A stretch of 64,000 nucleotides of DNA, from IMG/VR virus record IMGVR_UViG_3300027969_000041. The stretch is one strand, 5' to 3'. The translations under genes were made by a program, and so were the position numbers. Of this stretch, positions 2-63,088 are shown piece after piece. The notes beneath the pieces are model-generated. The model was not told the origin of the DNA. It searched no databases and saw only the letters and a program-made list of their open reading frames with translations. Positions within the stretch are counted from its first letter, which is position 1. Every line of letters begins with the position of its first letter. The DNA is from a virus (lineage: Duplodnaviria; Caudoviricetes).

Positions 2-3000
2 GGAAACATTTCTGTTAATCGAGATGACGGCGTCTGCTCAATCGAAACTGTTAATTCAACAGATGGAATTTATTTTGCAGTAATACACTCTGTACAAAAA
101 GAACATGCAATGGTCTTTAACAGTACTACAATTTTCAATGATACTATCTATGATATTGAAACAGGGTATCGTCAGCGTAGAATAAAATTATCAGGATTCC
201 GTACAGCAAATTGGAATGGAGATTATTTCAGTCCCGGTTTTATATACGACACTGCTCAGATTGCAGATTGGCAACAATATAAAGATTACAAATCTGGCGA
301 CCTAGTTAGATTTGCAAGTTTTTATTATTCTGCAAATAACAATGTTTCGGGTACCACCTCATTCGATTTTACTCAATGGACTAAGTTGGGTGAAAAACCA
401 GTTGCTGGTCTATTACCTAATTTTGATTATAAGATTAATCAGTTTGAAGATTTCTATAGTTTAGATATTGATAATTTTGATTCTGCACAGCAGAAGATGG
501 CACAACACCTAACTGGTTATACGCCCCGTGTTTACTTAAACAATATATTCACAAATCCTATTTCACAATATAAATTCTATCAAGGATTTATCAAAGAAAA
601 AGGTACCCGTAATGCTATCAACAAATTATCCAAAGCAACAGTACAAAATTTCCAAGGCGAAATTGATTTCAAAGAAGAATGGGCGTTCCGCATAGGCCAT
701 TACGGTGCATTTGAGACATATAACGAAATTGAAATTCCGTTAAATGAAGGCGGGTTTATAGAAAATCCTCAGGTAGTTAACTTTGTTAATTCAGTACCTA
801 CATCACCTAACGATTTAATTTATTATAGTGCTAGTGCTGATAGAGTAATCACTCCTGTAGATTACACAGCAAAGGATACCTTTCCAATTGACACAGATGA
901 TGATTTTGAATATCAGTTATCTACTGCGGGATATGTTAGACTTGACGATGTAACAGCTACATCCTATGATGATGCAACACTTCTTGAAATTACCAACAAT
1001 GGCAGCATACAAGAAGGCGATGTTATTTGGATAGGATTTAAGAAGAATGGAGATTGGGGAGTATCTCGATATACCAGATCCGACGCAGGAGTTGTGGGTG
1101 TAACACTAGATACTAATACATCAGAGCTTACCTTTATAACTGATAATCTTCACATGTTATCAGAAGGTGACATAGTTTCAGTTTCGCAATTTGGCAACAC
1201 AGTTAACGGAATTTATACTGTTAAATCTGTGGTTGGAACTAACACTTTTATAGTAGATACTACCTTAACATTCATTGACAGCACTTTACTATCTGCAAAA
1301 GGTGCTTTATATTCTTTTGTATCTGCAAGATTTGACACATTTGATAATTTACCGTTAGACAATGATTTATTATCTTTACCTGATGGTACAAAATTCTGGG
1401 TAGATCGTGAAGAACTTGTTGCCGGAGAAAAAACTAATAAATGGAAAGTTTATCAAAAGGTAAACAACTTTACTGCAATCTCTAATACTGGTGCATATAG
1501 TAATGAACAAATTGGATACAGTATCAATAAGAAAAATGGCAACGATATGTTTGTCGTGGGATCTCCGGCATTTAACACTGGTACAGGTGTTTCGAGAATC
1601 TCTGGAAAAGTTGCACTATACGAAAAGATAGGAGATACCCACGCCGAAAGAGCTGAGTTTTTCTTAAATGATTTACCTGTTACATACTATAATGTTTCAT
1701 CGGCACCAGTTTCAGAATTTGGCCGCTGTGTTGTCTATGACGACATTGAAACTACTAATTGGCATCAATATTGGAAACCTTCTGTAACATATACTGCTGG
1801 CATTATTGTTCGATATGGTCGTTATTCTTACAGATGTATAACATCTCATACGTCAACGATTGATATAGATTTAACAAAATGGTATAAACTTAATTTTGGA
1901 TTAATATTCTCTGGAGCACCTGGAGTTAGTTATGCTGGCACATCTACATATACAACCTATGTTCAACAAGGGTTAGTAAAAATTAGTAGTATTAATTCTT
2001 CTTTGTTAGAAGAAGTTACAGAAAAGGTATTGTCTAATCCGGTAACAGCAGCCAGTTATCAACGATTTGGTTCTTCTATATTTGTACAACGTAGTACAGG
2101 TACTAAGGCAATGATAATTAGTGCTCCTGGTACAGCAAGTACAGGAACTGGCGCAGTGTATGCTTATAGTATTACTGCAAATACAAGTACAGTGGGCGTA
2201 ACATACAGCAAGGTATTAACTCCGCCAGTGACATTAAATGTAGGTAGTCAGTGGGGTCATGCTATCAGCGGATCAGATGATGCAAGTATTATTGCAGTTG
2301 GTGCGCCTGGGTACTCAACTAGTACAGGTGTTGTTGCTATATTCACAGGTACATCAGTATCCACACATTATCAAGCTATCACTTCACCGTTTGGTAAGTT
2401 AGCAAGATTTGGAGAAACAGTGTTTGTTTCTGCCGATGGTACAGAATTGTTTGTATCTGCTCCTAATGTTAGAAACAGTGACCGATCTTTCGGAGCAGTT
2501 GTTGTCTATTCAAGAACAACTGGAACATTTAATACATCAACATATCAAATTATAGCTAACCCTGCAAAAGGTGCAGGCATGCACTTTGGTAAAGCAATTG
2601 ATATTACCGCTGACGGCGGAATATTAGTAGTGTCTGCATTAGGAAACAGTAAAAATGTACATACTACCTTTGATACCAGCACAACATTTGATGCTGGCTC
2701 AACAAGCTTCTTTGGAAACTTTAAAGACTCTGGTACTGTATATGTATTTGAGCGTGAACGAAAGTCTAGTAGATATGTACTAGCAGACGATCTAGAATCT
2801 ACAGTAACCGTTGCCGGCTCGTGGTACGGCAATAGTGTAGCAGTTGATGACACTGCTATTTTGGTAGGTGCTCCTGCTATTACTGGTTTAACAACTTCGA
2901 CAATGTATCAGTTTAATAAAATTGATAGTACTATTACAGGATTTGAAGTAGTTAGTGAAAAAGACGATCCAATAATGATCGATGCTATACAAAAAGTAAC

Positions 3001-6000
3001 ACTAATTAATGCGTTTACCGAAGAAGTTGTAGATTATCTTGATGTAGTTGATCCTCTAAAAGGAAAAATTGTAGGTATTGCAGATCAAGAATTAAAATAT
3101 AAATCTGCGTTTGACCCAGCAGTTTATTCTGTAGGTACAACATCTACTGTTACTGATCCGGAGTCTTGTTGGGTAGATAATCATGTAGGTGAATTGTGGT
3201 GGGATTTAAGTACCTCAAAATATATGTGGTATGAACAAAGTGATTTAACATATAGAAAAAATAACTGGGGTAAACTATTTCCCGGAGCAACTATAGATGT
3301 TTATGAATGGGTAGTTTCTATCTATCTGCCAAGTGAGTGGAACACAAAATCTAATTCTGCAGCCGGCCTAGCTGAAGGTGTAAGCGGTCAACCTAAATTT
3401 ATTGACGATAGTACTGTATCTGTTAAACAAGTGTACGATCGAATGACTAATTCTTTTAGTAATTATTATTACTATTGGGTTAAAAATAAAATCACAGTAC
3501 CTAATGCTAAGAATAGACGAGTAAGTGCTTATCAAGTTTCTTCGATGATTGCTGATCCTACCGCTTACGGAATTAAATTTGCCGCAATTATTGATAGTGA
3601 TGCAATTGCATTGGCTAATGTAGGACCTTTATTAGTTGACAATAGAATCCATTTAAATGTTTCCTTAGATTCAACAAATAAAAATGAAGCACTAAAGCAT
3701 ACAGAGTGGTTGCTATTACAAGAAGGGTCTGCTACAAGCACTCCAAACACACTACTTGAGAAAAAACTTCTTGATAGTTTATTAGGACATGATAGTTTAG
3801 GTAATCCTGTACCTAATCCGACATTGTCTGCAAGAACAAGATATGGTATAGGAATTCGACCACAACAAACTTTATTCAAAGATAGACTAGAAGCACTACG
3901 CAATCTTGTAGAATTTACAAATTCTGTGTTAATTAAAAATCTAATTACAGACAATTATAGTTTTTCTAATCTAAACAAACAAGATAACATTCCTGACGAA
4001 TATAGTCATCAGTACGATCAAGTTGTTGAAGATAACGAAGGTTTATTAATTATAGATACTAGATTATTTTCTAGACCAGTATTAACATGTACAGTTGCTA
4101 ACGGAAAAATTCGTAGTGTTCAAATTGTAAATCCGGGATTTGGTTATAAGATTTCTCCTACAGTTTCTATTATCAGTGATGTTAAATCTGATGCATTAAT
4201 TACAACTGAAATTGATGACCTAGGTAGAGTTACTTCGGTAAAAATTGATAATCCGGGTAACGGATTTACATCTGCGCCGACACTGGAAGTTCGCCAGTAC
4301 ACTGTAATTGTTCAGGCTGATACACAATTTAACGGAAAATGGTCTAAGTTTGTTTACAACTTAGATACACACGCATGGACTCGCATTGGTACACAAACTT
4401 ATAATACACCGTTATACTGGAATTATATAGATTGGTCTAGCACTGAGTATAATCCTTACCTAGATTATACAGCAACAGTTGATGATGTTTATGAAGTTAA
4501 TAAATTAGATTTAACAACAGGACAATATGTTAAAGTTAAAAACGGAGGATCTGGATCGTATATTATTCTAGAAAAAGTCTCTGCAGATACAGTAGGAACA
4601 TTTGATGCTGAATATAATATTGTTTACAGCGAAAACGGAACTATCCAAATAGCTAACAGTATCTGGGATACAAAAAATAGTACTCTTGGATTTGATCAAG
4701 TTGGAAGTTTTGATCAAACATTATACGATCAAACACCCGACATTGAATTACAATATATATTGGCAGCGTTAAAGAACGATATATTTGTCAACGAATTAAA
4801 AGTTAATTGGAATTTATTCTTCTTTAAGGCAGTTAAGTATGCACTAACAGAACAAAAATTATTAGACTGGGCTTTCAAAACATCATTTATTAATGTTGTT
4901 AATAATGCAGGTTTATTAGATCAACGACCTGTTTATAAATTATCAAATACTGATTATTATGAACAATATTTAGAAGAAGTAAAACCATACCATACTAACA
5001 TCCGTACATTTACTTCTAAGAACAGTGTCACAGACCCTACACATACTTACACAACTGATTTTGATTTGCCATCTGTTTACAATAAAACAACCGGCTTGTT
5101 TGAATCAATTGAAATTGGCAGTGATAAATTATCACAATATCCTTGGAAGTCGTGGGCAGATAATAATACCTATGAAGTTGGGGCTATTAAAGTAGGTGTT
5201 AAGGGTAGCGGATATACTGTTCCTCCTACAATTGAAATTATAACTGCCCCCGGAGACACTGGATCTGGAGCAACGGCTAGGGCATTTATTAGTTCTGGAC
5301 AGGTTACTGGAATCGAAGTTACAAATCCTGGATCAGGTTATATGAAATCTCCGACAGTCTCTATTGTTGGCGGAGGTGATACTCAATTAACTAAAGCGGT
5401 AGCGTATGCTCAGTTATCTAATGGTAAGATTAGAACAAATCAAATTTCTATGAAATTTGACAGAGTAAGTTCAGTTGATCAAATTGGCTCAAATACAGTA
5501 ACAGATAAATTTATTTGCAACGGAGCAATAAGTGAATTTACATTAAATTGGTTAGCAAAAGCAAGCAAACTTGATATAACTATTACTCTTGATGGTAATA
5601 TTGTTTTAAGTTCTGATTATACCCTTGAATATTTTACAGAAGACTATAATGGTTACAATAAAAAGTTTTCTAAGATTGTTTTCTTAAGTTATGTTCCTGC
5701 AAGTAATCAATTATTAGAAGTTACTTACTTAAAAAATACAGACTTATTCAATGCAACTGAAAGAATATTAAATTATTATACTGCAACTTCTGGAATGCCT
5801 GGGCTTGATCTAGGCCAACTAATGTTAGGTATTGATTATCCTAAGACTAAAATTGAAGGATTGTTGTTTGATAAAACTCAATCATGGGATTTAGTATTTC
5901 CTAACGGTGAAGGAACACCATTTGGGCAAAGTTCCTATGCTGACAGTATTAGTTATTATACTAAGACAACTTCAAGTTTTACATCTACTATTGTTAATGC

Positions 6001-32002: not shown

Positions 32003-34672
32003 TTACTCAAACGAGAAAAGCGAACCAAACGTATTTGTTTGGGTAGTAGAGTCTAGATCCCAGTCTAGTACTCCAATAAGGTTATCAAGTTTATTATTGA
32101 TAATAGTTGCTTCCATTTCAGCATGATCAAATGGCAGATCTTGGAACCATTTAGGTAAGCGTAGTTCATCTACAGGATATGCAATACTGGTGTAACCTAA
32201 CGGATTAGCTTTCACTTTGCAGACAATAACTTTCATACCATCTACTATTTGCATAGAATACTTGTCGCCGTTCATACGACGAAGGGTATTCCAATTAATA
32301 CTAGCCCGAACGTGTCCTGGCATATTTGCCTTACCGGACTTTTCTTCTTTCTTTTGGTATTCAGCAATGTTGTTGGCACGTTTAGGACTACCCTTCTCCC
32401 ATCCAGGACGAGATTTGAACTCAGTTCTAAATTCACTGATGCGATCTAGAATTTCTGTTTCTTGTGCGTTGTTAAGTACCTTTGTTAGAATCTCTTCTAA
32501 GAATTTCTGCATAAATTCTGGTGTGTCACTACGCTTAAGATCTAAACCCATGGCCTTAATTTTACCTGGCTTGCCATCTACATCACTGCGTTTGCCTTCT
32601 TTGTCATAGTACAACACAGCATATCGTTTTTTAGTAATAAACAATCCCTTGATGGCAACAATCTCGCGGCCTGCTTTAATAACTTCACCACGACTCTTTG
32701 GACAGTGGTGTGCATCCAACATAAACTGCGGAAATGTACTATTAACTTCTTCAGCAATTGTATCATACAACTGTACTACAGTATCTTTATTCCATGTTAT
32801 CTCTTTCTTTTCAATTTCCTTACGGAGACTTGAATAAGCACTAAAATAAGCAGAGTCTGTATCACCGTAGATAATACTTTTGCCTAAGTGATCATACTCG
32901 CCCGTAACTACTTCATTGATTTTACTAGCCATGTGTCGAGCAATGCCGCGGCCTGTAAGGGTAGTGGATTGACCAATTCGATTATCAAAGAAGCGACAAC
33001 CGGCGTTAAGAATGGCACCATACAAACTATTAAGCAAAATCTTTTTAACGAGCTGTCGCTTGTCCCAATATTCTTCTTCAATTTTATTACCTGCCTTAAT
33101 TGCATCCTTAAGTTTTGCCTGCATCTCTTTACGCTCTGCGTACCACCGTTTTAGCAATCCAGGAATAATACCTTCACGTTCATGAGTAATGATTGTACCA
33201 TTAGCACTAAGCATCCACGGCTTACCACTTTCAAATATTAGTTCGTAGATTTGTGCTCCACTCATAATATCAGTTTCACCGTTTTCCCAGTCAATGATAA
33301 TGTCGTGACTGCGATCTTGAGTCATAACAAATTCATATTCGTTAGCACCAAACTTGCCCTCCCATGCAGCCGCAAAAGAGTTACCTTTGGCAATCTTTTC
33401 TTCGATTTCCGCTTTAGTATAATCTTGGCGTAACTGTCCTACAATGGTTTCTGGACCCATGTTCAATGCACGAATTACAGATGGATACAAACTGTTAATG
33501 TCCATTGATCCAATATAATCGTGCAGTCCTTTTTTAGGATAAGCAACATACGCACCAGCGGCCTGATTAACAGCGTCCTCGTCACGCTTAGGGCGACTAG
33601 GAACAATAAGTCCCCTTGCATGGGATTCGTTTACAATAGCCTGTTCAGTAACAGCGACAGCACCCATTGTAGTTTGTAGTAACACAGTATTCTCATGTGC
33701 AATAGTACTGGCAAGATCTAAGAACTTTAATTTTTTATCTAGCTTGTTTAACAATGCCGTATCTTGTCTATTATATTCAATAAACTTTCGGAAGTCATTG
33801 TTATAAAGTTGATCTAGTGTACCTTCGTAGACTGTCTTGCTCTCACCTACCTCAGTTTCTCCGATGGCATCCAGTCGATAAGTGTGTCGTTCTTCGTATG
33901 TGTACTTGCGGTACAATTCGAGACTATCCAAATGAACACGACCAACAAGGTCATAAGTAACAGCCGCTTTTCCATATTTTTCGTATTCTCTTTTCTTAGG
34001 GAATTGATCCCACAAACAAAATCTACGTGTATCTTCTTTGCTGAGAACTTTAGTAACACGATTAACAGTATAGGGGATATCAAAACCTTCGCTATTCCAC
34101 CCACTGAGTACATCGCTATCCTGAATTAAATCTAAGAACGCATCTAACATCTCCGCTTCTGTTTCGAACAACATAGTGTTAGGAAACTCTTTGACTTGTT
34201 CTTCTGCTTGCTCCATAGTCAGTGTCTTTGGCGGAACTGCAAGACATACTAGTGTATCCAACCATTGTAGGTGAACAGCAATAGCAGTGATTGGCATAAA
34301 AGCATCTTCTGGAGTGCTATAGCCACGTTCTGGATCAAAGTCCACCTCGATATCAAAAAATGCTACATTGAGTTTTGGAGCATCCTTGCCTAGATAGTTT
34401 TCTTCTAGACAACGGAATACTGGATTGATGTCACTTTCAAATAATTTGTGACTACTGTGAATTTTTTGTTCTTTGACAAACTCTTTCCAGTTACGTGCAG
34501 TAACTTTGTTAAGATTGTCTCCGTAAATGGATTTATACTTACCCCGTTGGTCTGGGTAATAGAACATATACTTTGCAGGATATTCTTGATAAAGTCTACC
34601 CTTCTTTGGATCACGTTCGATAACCTGAACAATGTCCTTTTCTCGGTCCCACCGAGCATCTACATAACTCAT
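32003..34672 (-). CDS. polB: Family B DNA polymerase (gp43-like)
   Basis: ExoI FDIE, ExoII WNSEGFD, ExoIII YNRQD, motif A DINSLYPS, motif B KILLNSLYG, motif C YGDTDS; start MSYVDA at 34672 after SD AAGGAG. Confidence 0.96.
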   Translation of the reverse strand: MSYVDARWDREKDIVQVIERDPKKGRLYQEYPAKYMFYYPDQRGKYKSIYGDNLNKVTARNWKEFVKEQKIHSSHKLFESDINPVFRCLEENYLGKDAPKLNVAFFDIEVDFDPERGYSTPEDAFMPITAIAVHLQWLDTLVCLAVPPKTLTMEQAEEQVKEFPNTMLFETEAEMLDAFLDLIQDSDVLSGWNSEGFDIPYTVNRVTKVLSKEDTRRFCLWDQFPKKREYEKYGKAAVTYDLVGRVHLDSLELYRKYTYEERHTYRLDAIGETEVGESKTVYEGTLDQLYNNDFRKFIEYNRQDTALLNKLDKKLKFLDLASTIAHENTVLLQTTMGAVAVTEQAIVNESHARGLIVPSRPKRDEDAVNQAAGAYVAYPKKGLHDYIGSMDINSLYPSVIRALNMGPETIVGQLRQDYTKAEIEEKIAKGNSFAAAWEGKFGANEYEFVMTQDRSHDIIIDWENGETDIMSGAQIYELIFESGKPWMLSANGTIITHEREGIIPGLLKRWYAERKEMQAKLKDAIKAGNKIEEEYWDKRQLVKKILLNSLYGAILNAGCRFFDNRIGQSTTLTGRGIARHMASKINEVVTGEYDHLGKSIIYGDTDSAYFSAYSSLRKEIEKKEITWNKDTVVQLYDTIAEEVNSTFPQFMLDAHHCPKSRGEVIKAGREIVAIKGLFITKKRYAVLYYDKEGKRSDVDGKPGKIKAMGLDLKRSDTPEFMQKFLEEILTKVLNNAQETEILDRISEFRTEFKSRPGWEKGSPKRANNIAEYQKKEEKSGKANMPGHVRASINWNTLRRMNGDKYSMQIVDGMKVIVCKVKANPLGYTSIAYPVDELRLPKWFQDLPFDHAEMEATIINNKLDNLIGVLDWDLDSTTQTNTFGSLFSFE

Positions 34673-34683
34673 ATTTTCTCCTT

Positions 34684-34733
34684 TGTGTAATTTGCGGCCT
34701 ACACATACCTCTATGATCATTTGTGGCTGATCA
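34684..34733 (-). promoter_or_regulatory. Tandem RNA hairpins abutting the polymerase RBS (putative translational operator)
   Basis: TGATCA-GCCACAAA-TGATCA and TGTGTAG-GCCGCAAA-TTACACA, followed directly by AAGGAG-N5-ATG. Confidence 0.6.
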
Positions 34734-34743
34734 AACCTTTCTC

Positions 34744-35034
34744 TTACATATTTATTAGTCTAATGTAGCCAATAAGATCAATAGTGACTAATAGAATATA
34801 ATTTGCTACCATACCTGTACTCTTACGTGTCCAAGCAGCCCATCCAAAGATGGCGCATTGTGTAATGAATATTGGATATAACCAAATAAACAATGGATCA
34901 GTTGCGCCGGCGGCAAGTGTAAGAGAGCAGCCGAGACTCATAGCCCATGCTGTAATTTCTAAAACAAAACGAGTAGGCCAAACTTTATAATCGGTCTTAG
35001 CCCATTCTATAATACCACTTAACAATTTATTCAT
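34744..35034 (-). CDS. Small membrane protein
   Basis: 96 aa with about three hydrophobic segments. Confidence 0.6.
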   Translation of the reverse strand: MNKLLSGIIEWAKTDYKVWPTRFVLEITAWAMSLGCSLTLAAGATDPLFIWLYPIFITQCAIFGWAAWTRKSTGMVANYILLVTIDLIGYIRLINM

Positions 35035-37716: not shown

Positions 37717-38507
37717 TCGCAGTTCCACTTTCTTAATGCTAGAGCTTTGCGTGTAGGTTCACCGTTGGGCTTTTTCATTGGCCCTTTACTGCCACCCATT
37801 CTAGCACAAAATGATTTACGACGCTTGGCCGCCTTGCTTCCGGGTTTAAGTTTGCTAGGTTTAGTAGTAACTGCTGTTTGTAATTTGCTGCCTGGATTTT
37901 CTCTACGATAGCTAGCAACACCTTTAGCATTTAAGCCACCGTTCTTGTTCTTGCCTGCCTTGCGATGCCAAGCAGCTGATTCGGCAACATGACCATCTAA
38001 GAATGTATCGGCAAACTTTTTACAAAGAGTGCGTATAGCAGGATTGCGAGTTTCTTCTAAAGTAAATGTGCGTTCATCATGCTTATCATCACCTTGACTT
38101 GGGTCTTGATATCCGCAATATACTTTATGTACTATGGAGTCATTAATTAGTTCTGTACAGCTTTCGCCATAGCGTCCGTCTGCTGTAATATCACTGTGCT
38201 CGCTACATGGACTAAGAGTTGTAATAATGATACTACCTTTTGGCACAGGTTGACCATAATTACTTTCATATTCTTCAATGGCAGCTCTTTCTGCGTGTAC
38301 TCGACTACCATCTTCGTTGGGATAATTTACAGAGGCAGCTAAATTATTATCAGGATCTAGAACACCGGCAGCAACCATACCGTAGTGTTTGCTGTCCTCT
38401 TGTTGTCCTTCGATAACCATCTCACATAACTTAACTAGTATTTGATCTAGTTTTTCGTGGTTATGTATTTCGTAGTCATCTGACTCTAATAAATCGGTTA
38501 TTTTCAT
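37713..38507 (-). CDS. Zn-dependent deaminase (RibD/CDA fold) fused to a basic DUF6321-like module
   Basis: HAE...TLSPC...SC..LI...V..GYQDP; C-terminal AAWHRKAGKNKNGGLN...RRKSFCARM...LRKWNC. Confidence 0.65.
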   Translation of the reverse strand: MKITDLLESDDYEIHNHEKLDQILVKLCEMVIEGQQEDSKHYGMVAAGVLDPDNNLAASVNYPNEDGSRVHAERAAIEEYESNYGQPVPKGSIIITTLSPCSEHSDITADGRYGESCTELINDSIVHKVYCGYQDPSQGDDKHDERTFTLEETRNPAIRTLCKKFADTFLDGHVAESAAWHRKAGKNKNGGLNAKGVASYRRENPGSKLQTAVTTKPSKLKPGSKAAKRRKSFCARMGGSKGPMKKPNGEPTRKALALRKWNCE

Positions 38508-45536: not shown

Positions 45537-45548
45537 AGTAAAGTATAT

Positions 45549-46220
45549 TTATGCCACTATTAGGTTCTCTCTTAGTACATATTCTTCTACAACCCGAACA
45601 TTATTACCTAAAAATAGACCAAACATGGCCAGTGTTTTATCATCCTCAACATACATAAATGGTGCTTGTACATAGGCGTTTCTGCCAGATAACCATCTAC
45701 TTGTAGAGTCTGCAATAGATATACTGCTGCCATATTTTTTAGCCCATTCTAAGAACTTAGGTCTAGAATCTAATGGCATGTTTGGTCTAAAGTTTATCTT
45801 GTATCTATATTTGTCATACGGAAAATTACTACAAATAACTTTCTTTTTACCACTGGACAGCATGAATTCTAGTTCTTCGTCGCTATCTGGCCCTGTAACT
45901 GCTTTGAGCCATTTGCCCATGTCTTTAACGATAGCATCTTTTAATTCACGATCCTTGCAAAAGAAGTTAAAATGACTTCCCTCTGCACGAATCTGTAAAT
46001 CCTTGTCTAGATAAGGTTCAACTACATTTAAAAATTCAATCACACAGGCTTTTTCCTGATCGGAGGATTTAACCCATGTGTTTGTTTTCTGTGCTGCCCA
46101 ATGTCTAGTGCCTTCTGCGCCAAGCCTAATAATCATACTAGACCTAGTTAGGATACATTCAATCTTAAAAGGCCACTTACCGTAGTAGAGCTTATTGATT
46201 TTCTGCTTCAGCCGGCTCAT
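45549..46220 (-). CDS. Hypothetical protein
   Basis: 223-aa ORF overlapping the ClpA 3' end by 29 nt. Confidence 0.55.
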   Translation of the reverse strand: MSRLKQKINKLYYGKWPFKIECILTRSSMIIRLGAEGTRHWAAQKTNTWVKSSDQEKACVIEFLNVVEPYLDKDLQIRAEGSHFNFFCKDRELKDAIVKDMGKWLKAVTGPDSDEELEFMLSSGKKKVICSNFPYDKYRYKINFRPNMPLDSRPKFLEWAKKYGSSISIADSTSRWLSGRNAYVQAPFMYVEDDKTLAMFGLFLGNNVRVVEEYVLRENLIVA

Positions 46221-48971: not shown

Positions 48972-48976
48972 ATTAT

Positions 48977-49795
48977 TTAAGAGAAAAGTTGTTTAATAAT
49001 ATCACGTTGATACTCGTTTAATGTTGGTACTGTTATGTTAAGTTGAATTAACATACGACCTTTAAAACGATGATCGCTAATATGTGGCATACCGTAACCA
49101 TTTGCTGCCAACATTTGTCCTGGTTGTGTTCCCGGCTTAACTTCTATTTCTAAAGTCTTGCCATCTATTGTATCTACGGTAATAGTTTTACCTATCATTG
49201 CATCGATACAGCTAACATCTATAGACCTAATTAAATCGTCACCTTGTCGAGTGAATATTGGGTGCGGATATATATGAACACTAAGATGAATATCACCTCG
49301 GGGTATATTTGGAATACTATCATCGCCCATGCTAGCTAATCGCAGAGTTGTTCCGTCTTGCACACCTGCAGGAATTTTAACATCAATTAACTGTTCTTTA
49401 CCGCTGGGTAATACAATATTTGCCATTAGGTCCTTGCCACTGAACGCTTCTTCTAAAGAGATGTCGGTTCGCATATTCAATGTTCGGTTGCGTTGTTGTC
49501 TACGCCCTCCAAACATATCTCCAAATGGTCCTCCTCCAAAAGCATTGAATATATCTTCAAAGCCCGGGGGCATTCCTCCTCCGAATTGCTGGAATCCTTG
49601 AGGCATGGGATTATCGTATTGTTGTCGTTTTTGCGGATCACTGAGTGTGCGATATGCTTCTTCAACTTCTTGAAATTTAGCTGTATCACCACCTCTATCC
49701 GGATGATGGTTTGCCGCCATCTTTCGATAGGCCCGTTTAATTTCGTCTGGTGTAGCGCCTCGATTAACGCCTAATGTTTGATAAAAGTCTGTCAT
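48977..49795 (-). CDS. dnaJ: DnaJ-family co-chaperone (no Zn finger; CbpA/type II-like)
   Basis: J-domain with HPD, G/F-rich linker, C-terminal beta domains (GDDL...MIG, GTQPG, GMP). Confidence 0.93.
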   Translation of the reverse strand: MTDFYQTLGVNRGATPDEIKRAYRKMAANHHPDRGGDTAKFQEVEEAYRTLSDPQKRQQYDNPMPQGFQQFGGGMPPGFEDIFNAFGGGPFGDMFGGRRQQRNRTLNMRTDISLEEAFSGKDLMANIVLPSGKEQLIDVKIPAGVQDGTTLRLASMGDDSIPNIPRGDIHLSVHIYPHPIFTRQGDDLIRSIDVSCIDAMIGKTITVDTIDGKTLEIEVKPGTQPGQMLAANGYGMPHISDHRFKGRMLIQLNITVPTLNEYQRDIIKQLFS

Positions 49796-54375: not shown

Positions 54376-54394
54376 GGTGGTTTCCGTTATTGTA

Positions 54395-54402
54395 TATTTA
54401 TA
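54395..54402 (-). promoter_or_regulatory. T4-type late promoter TATAAATA heading the structural/lysis transcript
   Basis: Exact match ending 19 nt upstream of ATG 54375. Confidence 0.65.
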
Positions 54403-63048: not shown

Positions 63049-63088
63049 TGTATAACTCCGTTCTCCCTAATATTTAACCTGGTAAACA

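Follow-up and report, generated by a model that had tools for sequence, protein, structure and literature searches.

Two tandem, probably pseudoknotted hairpins form a conserved RNA leader of a giant-phage DNA polymerase gene

The family-B DNA polymerase gene of a tailed virus (Duplodnaviria; Caudoviricetes; IMG/VR record IMGVR_UViG_3300027969_000041) was found to be preceded by two small tandem hairpins that lie against its Shine-Dalgarno (SD) sequence and covary among relatives. Each hairpin probably forms a mini H-type pseudoknot with its own 5′ flank, a feature that is newly described here. On the evidence of sequence comparison, this twin-pseudoknot leader is an uncatalogued RNA family that is specific to the polymerase gene and widespread among contigs of giant phages from fresh and marine waters. 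The best reading of its role, which we hold tentatively and by analogy with other phages, is that of a translational operator through which the polymerase would repress its own synthesis. The whole stretch of DNA that was analysed, 64,000 nucleotides in length, is called the window throughout.

Organization of the leader and start of the polymerase gene

All features of the leader lie on the minus strand, in the 5′ to 3′ order TAAATA, GAG-AAA, GGU, hairpin 1, GGU, hairpin 2, SD and ATG, and the two modules within it measure about 28 nt each. Upstream, on the same strand, is an ORF for a small membrane-like protein of 96 aa that ends at 34744, and its end is overlapped by the TAAATA box. The positions in the window are:

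34749..34754, minus strand: TAAATA box, 12-17 nt 5′ of the first GG
34735..34737, minus strand: module 1 GGU, predicted 5′ strand of helix S1, pairing with GCC of loop 1 (34727-34725)
34714..34733, minus strand: hairpin 1 (helix S2 of module 1), UGAUCA / GCCACAAA / UGAUCA, from the centroid fold, covariation and covariance model
34707..34709, minus strand: module 2 GGU, putative 5′ strand of helix S1, expected by analogy to pair with GCC of loop 2 (34698-34696)
34684..34705, minus strand: hairpin 2 (helix S2 of module 2), UGUGUAG / GCCGCAAA / UUACACA, from the centroid fold, covariation and covariance model
34678..34683, minus strand: Shine-Dalgarno sequence AAGGAG, directly 3′ of hairpin 2 (gap 0 nt), followed by 5 nt and then ATG
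32003..34672, minus strand: family-B (T4 gp43-type) DNA polymerase gene, 889 aa, with its ATG at 34672

An earlier note, made from the letters of the window, had described twin hairpins with 8-nt loops adjoining the polymerase SD. Their sequence and coordinates were confirmed on the minus strand, where the ViennaRNA centroid structure consists of exactly these two hairpins. The stem of hairpin 1 pairs 34733-34728 with 34719-34714 around the 8-nt loop GCCACAAA (34727-34720); a single U separates it from the GGU at 34737-34735, and a 4-nt linker follows on its 3′ side. The stem of hairpin 2, with a G-U closing pair, joins 34705-34699 to 34690-34684 around the 8-nt loop GCCGCAAA (34698-34691), and here a single A lies between the stem and the GGU at 34709-34707. 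Across 158 distinct leaders, loop 1 and loop 2 are offset by 28-31 nt, the SD core starts between -1 and +5 nt from the 3′ end of the hairpin 2 stem, and the start codon is found 8-18 nt 3′ of hairpin 2. The SD itself is unpaired, or is overlapped by at most 1-3 nt.

The polymerase ORF has Pfam matches to DNA_pol_B (1.4e-38) and DNA_pol_B_exo1 (8.5e-19), and the RB69 gp43 structures match the encoded protein with an E-value of 1e-63. Its nearest cultured relatives are jumbo phages, with 50% identity for Phosso, 47% for Atu_ph07 and 42-43% for the RaK2/121Q group; no near-identical phage records were found for the window. Mechanical ORF lists give a product of 905 aa because of an in-frame ATG at 34720 on the minus strand, which lies within hairpin 1. 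Since this upstream ATG is missing from relatives with other stems, and since the N-terminus MSYVDA is kept in all relatives as well as in Phosso, we take the ATG at 34672, and not that at 34720, to be the true start.

Two further observations concern the coding region. At three other loci (L283, L284 and L285; match 401-3637), where the twin motif is absent, the polymerase match spans about 3.2 kb as against 2.67 kb, which suggests an insertion in the gene, for example an intein, an intron or an extra domain. In a lake-water metatranscriptome, a 237-nt contig was identical to window positions 33887-34123, inside the polymerase coding region, although DNA carry-over is possible for it; the one lake RNA run gave only short contigs, all from within the polymerase coding region, so that the leader was not covered.

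Conservation and covariation among relatives

Taken by itself, the window sequence gives the hairpins no statistical distinction. The folding energy is ordinary (z-score -0.46), and the window contains the loop word GCCRCAAA 6 times versus 4.3 expected, which is no enrichment. Because these single-sequence statistics were uninformative, we relied on comparison with relatives. A protein-first scan of IMG/VR returned more than 600 polymerase loci, and both hairpins were present in all of the best 80, whose polymerases are 82-95% identical to that of the window. Stem sequences differ among the relatives, with GAUCA, GCGA, GGUCG, GCGG, UAUCA and AGUCA recorded for hairpin 1, and UGUGUAG, UGCCG, UUGCAA, UUGAGA, GUGA and UGUCU for hairpin 2. 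RNAalifold recovered both hairpins, with double-sided changes at 8 out of 8 core pairs and almost no broken pairs.

Covariation was scored on a covariance-model alignment of 100 protein-first leaders, 81 of which are distinct. Among the distinct leaders, 93.1% of cells were paired compared with 75.6% in shuffled alignments, and the covariation score was 0.587 versus 0.262, a level reached by none of 500 shuffles. As a control, the 3′ partners were slid by 1-3 columns, upon which the score fell to 0.04-0.12. The exchanges at single pairs illustrate the result: in hairpin 1, one pair is A-U in 49 leaders, G-C in 29 and G-U in 3, and another is C-G in 54, G-C in 25 and A-U in 2, while pairs of hairpin 2 include one with U-A 38, C-G 34, A-U 7 and G-C 2, and one with C-G 48, A-U 17 and G-C 15. 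The covariation analysis of relatives that the earlier note had named as a check has thus come out in favor of the hairpins, by RNAalifold, against the shuffles (0/500) and over more than 150 distinct leaders. Judged from these alignments, they are a conserved, covarying RNA structure on the mRNA-sense strand.

The strand assignment follows from the wobble pairs. Sense-strand G-U pairs are frequent (G-U 23 and U-G 24 are examples), and since each of them would read as a C-A mismatch on the opposite strand, the structure is assigned to RNA with the polarity of the mRNA. This bears on whether the element might instead be a signal at the level of DNA, on one strand or the other, for example an origin, a primase site or a hairpin promoter, or might have arisen by chance. 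Ordinary folding energy and an ordinary loop word in the single sequence are in keeping with such an origin, but conservation and covariation in more than 150 distinct leaders exclude chance, the G-U pairs speak against a role as DNA, and the element is linked to the mRNA by its constant placement with respect to SD and start codon. Together these points make a DNA-level or chance origin exceedingly improbable.

The earlier note had also reported that both loops share the identical sequence GCCRCAAA. The 8-nt length was borne out in the window, but the family is not strictly GCCRCAAA: loop 1 reads RCC-A-Y-A-A-N and loop 2 reads RCC-N-N-A-A-N. In loop 1, A4, A6 and A7 were invariant in 81 of 81 leaders, and the AA was invariant in both modules in the same 81. 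Position 5 of loop 1 prefers a pyrimidine, and positions 4-5 of loop 2 vary freely.

Pseudoknot pairing within the modules

A GGY trinucleotide, complementary to loop bases 1-3 (RCC), lies at a fixed distance of 7 nt 5′ of loop 1 whatever the length of the stem, and 5-9 nt 5′ of loop 2 in every leader. For module 1, the 81 distinct protein-first leaders gave a first S1 pair of G-C in 78 and A-U in 2, a second pair of G-C in 81, and a third pair of U-G in 58, C-G in 18, U-A in 3 and A-U in 1, so that 99.2% of S1 cells were paired. Double-sided changes were seen twice over, as AGU:GCU in loci L020 and L027, which differ in both stems, and as GGA:UCC in the marine L223 group (9 contigs). The combinations in module 2 were GGU:GCC (61), GGU:ACC (3) and GGC:GCC (2), none of them incompatible with pairing, and no double-sided change was seen for GGY:RCC in this module. 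Loop-flank pairing, compensatory changes and groove-crossing loops, which characterize an H-type pseudoknot, were accordingly found in module 1. As far as sequence comparison can establish a structure, it establishes the first pseudoknot helix (module 1) and both hairpins; for module 2, we infer the pseudoknot pairing by analogy with module 1.

The geometry predicted for each module comprises a helix S1 of 3 bp, a helix S2 of 4-7 bp and a linker of 0-3 nt, the linker and the S2 strand adding up to a constant 7 nt in module 1. There is no second loop, and the third loop is 5 nt long (N-N-A-A-N). In the modeled fold, the first loop crosses the deep groove of S2 and the third loop crosses the minor groove of S1, which is the classical H-type geometry, and the invariant AA of the loop fits A-minor contacts with the two G-C pairs of S1. 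Covariation also links the last loop base to the one that follows GG, with a mutual information of 0.39 bit, the highest outside the stems: C occurs with G in 24 cases, with U in 4 and with A in 0 of 28, and U occurs with A in 95 of 124. A Watson-Crick pair between these two positions was considered on account of the covariation but was rejected as topologically incompatible with the G0-C pairing. Since the polarity of that pairing is fixed by the A-U-for-G-C change, we read the last loop base as part of a junction base triple.

Pairings between the modules were rejected as well, whether by kissing of the two loops or between the GGY of module 1 and loop 2. Where the flank is AGU, loop 1 has GCU while loop 2 stays GCC, so that each loop appears to pair with its own 5′ flank; covariation between the modules was sought and none was found.

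These results change the weight of one argument in the earlier note, which had taken different stems with matching loops to be the signature of recognition by a protein. RNA tertiary structure accounts for most of the conservation among the loop bases, through GGY:RCC, the docking AA and the covarying last base, and loop identity is weakened as a sign of protein recognition. Beyond the fold, the candidate contact bases are reduced to A4 and Y5 of loop 1. The same finding lends some support to a leader that works without any ligand, in which the pseudoknots would act alone and set a fixed level of polymerase translation with no sensing. Such a leader could act by one or more routes: as a 5′-proximal stabilizer against RNase, as an insulator that keeps the SD free, or as a platform on which the 30S subunit docks or stands by. 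The fold alone would account for nearly all of the conserved positions, and an SD that is free of pairing but for 1-3 nt at most is what an insulator or platform would leave. On the other side, A4 of loop 1 is invariant with no structural reason, and the tight two-module architecture at a fixed offset of 28-31 nt suggests a partner. We consider a ligand-free structural leader rather unlikely on balance, also in view of its distribution.

Distribution and gene specificity

Two covariance models were built, R1 for the twin motif and R2 for the single module, and the window was scanned with filters off. R1 scored 79.7 bits at the leader, compared with 12.3 bits for the next best match, and R2 scored 36.1 bits at hairpin 1 and 22.3 bits at hairpin 2, compared with 11.5 bits for the next best. 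Neither these models nor a regular-expression scan revealed another copy within the 64-kb window. Two weaker candidates look like chance, one at 38244 with a 4-bp stem that includes a G-U pair, and one in G008 (18.6 bits) with an A4/U4 "stem"; both lie inside coding regions. Ten large contigs of relatives, among them a 353-kb record that CheckV rates as 99% complete, contain one twin site each and nothing else above noise. A general stabilizer or enhancer of the ligand-free kind would be expected on more than one gene, and the confinement of the module to one site in this nearly complete genome and in the window argues against it.

A motif-first scan of IMG/VR used a degenerate pattern of which the polymerase was no part, and it returned at least 117 new loci. 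Among the 117 matches listed, a polymerase homologue lay directly 3′ in 116, and both hairpins could be formed in 113. The odd one, L199, is GC-rich, lacks the hairpins and was set aside as a chance match. The same pattern applied as a control to cellular genomes (596 Gb) gave 120 scattered matches, none of which was able to form both hairpins.

The motif was found with polymerases down to 66% identical to that of the window. The gene upstream of it varies, being mostly the small membrane protein but in other cases encoding proteins of 104, 121, 219, 227 or 229 aa, and the distance from its stop codon to the motif ranges from 0 to 40 nt. Because the motif stays while the upstream gene changes, the element belongs to the polymerase gene and not to its neighbor. 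Translational coupling or reinitiation from the upstream ORF was considered and is unlikely given the same variation in gene and distance. In one locus (L090:2868-3008, minus strand), an ORF of 46 aa with a CxxC...CxxC pattern has been inserted and separates the twin pseudoknots from the polymerase gene. Its TGA overlaps the ATG of the polymerase, an arrangement suggestive of translational coupling between these two. Such an insertion would be expected of control that is exerted where initiation first takes place and that reaches the next gene through coupling.

The limit of the family was sought with a protein-first scan that took the 66%-identical polymerase as query. All relatives down to about 79% identity to this query carry the twin motif. 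Outside this range, the leaders diverge by clade. Loci L250, L251, L254 and L255 (about 318-403) form a clade with the SD-proximal module only, in which an unrelated but covarying bulged hairpin, with GCAUGUAG on its 3′ side, takes the place of module 1; L252, L261 and L266 (about 318-403) share a conserved segment containing AUUGGCAGGAA with weak predicted structure; and further sister clades have other leader structures or none that is recognizable. The motif is absent from Phosso, Atu_ph07, RaK2, T4 and RB69.

The swap of module 1 in the first of these clades implies that the modules can be separate binding units, and it is one of the points in favor of an operator that is read by some other phage protein, for instance the single-strand-binding protein or an RNA-binding repressor that acts as a dimer. 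One subunit would sit on each module, in the way that the ThrRS dimer binds the two anticodon-like hairpins of the E. coli thrS leader. Two near-identical modules at a fixed offset would fit a dimer equally well. A single target in the whole genome, by contrast, is typical of autogenous control, and a dedicated regulator of one other gene is less usual. RegA-type proteins (PF01818) gave 0 matches in three relatives, one of them 99% complete, although the control genomes lacked RegA too, and no candidate protein was identified. We therefore regard an operator of this kind as unlikely.

Comparison with catalogued RNAs gave no match. No Rfam 15 family reached its gathering score anywhere in the window, and relaxing the cutoff to E ≤10 for positions 34500-34900 produced preQ1-II as the sole match, at 16.5 bits against a threshold of 47 (E 4.9). 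No published description of the motif was found in full-text literature searches. The search results weigh on the notion of a tandem riboswitch, in which each mini pseudoknot would be an aptamer in the style of preQ1-I or SAM-II for a nucleotide-related metabolite, such as a dNTP or a precursor of 7-deazaguanine. In its favor, several small riboswitches are built on an H-type pseudoknot whose third loop is rich in A, and tandem aptamers exist. Apart from the low preQ1-II score, however, the helical junction is variable (Y:R with N8) and loop positions 4-5 of module 2 are free, which leaves no conserved pocket; the structure is replaced in sister clades; and the motif was not found before any biosynthetic gene in the contigs of relatives. 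The differing leader structures of the sister clades fit a co-evolving protein-RNA pair better than a metabolite sensor, and we rate a riboswitch as quite improbable.

A conserved TAAATA box upstream of the modules

Among the 158 distinct leaders, the TAAATA box at positions -17 to -12 is conserved to.75 (T),.80 (A),.83 (A),.68 (A),.69 (T) and.71 (A), and it is followed by five A/T and then GAG. Its position does not change with the frame or identity of the upstream gene. The box resembles the 3′ part of the T4 late promoter TATAAATA and is a candidate promoter element of the -10 type; it may be the T4-late-like promoter core of the window phage. Located 12-17 nt upstream, it could place the 5′ end of the transcript a few nucleotides before module 1, which would suit the ligand-free reading of the leader described above.

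Within the window, WTAAATAWW is depleted, with 9 copies compared with 24 expected. Minus-strand copies occur also at 45544-45552, 48972-48980, 54393-54401 and 63069-63077, and several of the nine sit just 5′ of minus-strand gene starts. We also considered TAAATA-N5-RAG as a repeated promoter unit; it has only two exact matches in the window.

Proposed function and significance

The gp43 polymerases of T4, RB69 and RB49 repress their own translation through a hairpin in the mRNA leader (PMC3014915). We propose that the window leader serves as a translational operator in a similar way. The 5′ leader of the polymerase mRNA would fold into two tandem compact H-type pseudoknots, each module consisting of GGY, a linker of 0-3 nt, a stem of 4-7 bp, an 8-nt loop RCC-NN-AA-N and the return strand. 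Within each module, GGY would pair with the RCC of the loop, and the A-rich remainder of the loop would lie in the minor groove of the short helix so formed. The folded leader would then be bound by a phage protein, the polymerase free of DNA being the most likely one, and access of the 30S subunit to the adjacent SD would be blocked, which would make polymerase synthesis self-limiting as it is for T4 and RB69 gp43. Any factor that binds or stabilizes the folded block would occupy the place where the 30S platform holds the SD helix.

Both translational repression and the polymerase as its ligand are drawn by analogy in this proposal. Autogenous control is favored by the single target per genome, by the gp43-type gene that it precedes, by the position against the SD and by the turnover of leaders between sister clades. 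The mechanism put forward in the earlier note is accordingly one that we still find plausible, even though its argument from the loops has lost force.

Autogenous translational control of a replicative DNA polymerase has been documented only for T4, RB69 and RB49, and no structure exists of a gp43 operator RNA-protein complex (PMC3014915). The twin-pseudoknot leader would add a second candidate operator, of different structure, for this family of enzymes, and it is very small with unusually rich natural covariation. If the polymerase does bind it, the leader would offer a tractable system for asking how a polymerase of family B distinguishes one specific RNA from primer-template DNA, and also a regulatory part that is compact and portable. 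Should the polymerase turn out not to bind, the leader would still be an RNA family that is not in Rfam 15. In the improbable event that the riboswitch reading is true, polymerase synthesis would be coupled to the availability of the precursors from which the phage makes its modified DNA.

Comparison with known systems

Several known RNAs share one or more traits with the window leader. Guanidine-II (mini-ykkC) also has two small hairpins with conserved loops and free stems, but it needs ACGR tetraloops that pair loop to loop, whereas the loops here are 8 nt long (RCC-NN-AA-N) and do not kiss. The preQ1-I, preQ1-II and SAM-II riboswitches have the same compact H-type topology, with an A-rich loop in the minor groove and a position adjoining the SD. 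In these, the short helix is formed 3′ of the hairpin, whereas it is formed 5′ of it here, and the window leader lacks a conserved junction pocket.

Among autogenous systems of cellular genes, the closest in arrangement are thrS and rpsO. In E. coli thrS, two anticodon-like hairpins just 5′ of the SD are bound by the ThrRS dimer, which represses its own synthesis, and in rpsO, a pseudoknot at the ribosome-binding site is the target of S15 in autogenous translational repression. The window leader is like thrS in having a pair of hairpins with similar loops immediately 5′ of the SD, and like rpsO in placing a predicted pseudoknot at the ribosome-binding site. Neither system is related to it in sequence or fold, and both concern cellular genes; the thrS loops mimic the 7-nt anticodon loop of tRNA, and no mimicry target is evident for the loops of the window leader.

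Closer in kind is the leader of gene 32 in T4 and T2, whose pseudoknot is the nucleation site for gp32 in autogenous translational control. It too is an H-type pseudoknot that precedes a replication gene of a T4-related phage, and its first loop, which spans a helix of 5-7 bp, is very short (PMC3014915). It differs in preceding another gene, in being single and in lying about 40-70 nt upstream, where a long A/U-rich tract without structure, which gp32 coats, lies 3′ of it. The window leader, by comparison, has two much smaller predicted knots, each with a first helix of 3 bp, that touch the SD.

The operators of gp43 in T4, RB69 and RB49 are nearest in gene and position. As in those phages, the window leader precedes a gp43-type family-B polymerase gene and places a hairpin just 5′ of the SD, with an 8-nt loop and a single site per genome; the distance from hairpin end to SD, as read from the genomes, is 9 nt in T4 and 2 nt in RB69, compared with 0 nt here. 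The run of YAA in the loop, which is UAAC in T4 and RB69 and UAAA in RB49, has a counterpart in the Y-A-A-N of the window leader, a resemblance and nothing further (PMC3014915). The gp43 operator is otherwise a single hairpin of 4-5 bp with the loop AAUAACUC and no pseudoknot, whereas the window leader has two modules, loops of the form RCC-NN-AA-N in place of AAUAACUC, and loop bases 1-3 that are engaged in the predicted pseudoknot. The R2 model found no match in the gene 43 leaders of T4 and RB69. The earlier note had cast the element as a variant of T4 gp43 autoregulation. What holds of that description is a covarying RNA, specific to polymerase leaders, that adjoins the SD as the RB69 operator does and has 8-nt loops; what does not hold is kinship of the loop or of the covariance model with T4 and RB69. 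Some T4-related polymerases do not autoregulate, and gp43 operators have no known pseudoknot (PMC3014915). For both reasons, the parallel that we draw is one of working in a like manner, as a candidate operator set against the SD of the same kind of gene, rather than one of membership in the gp43 operator family.
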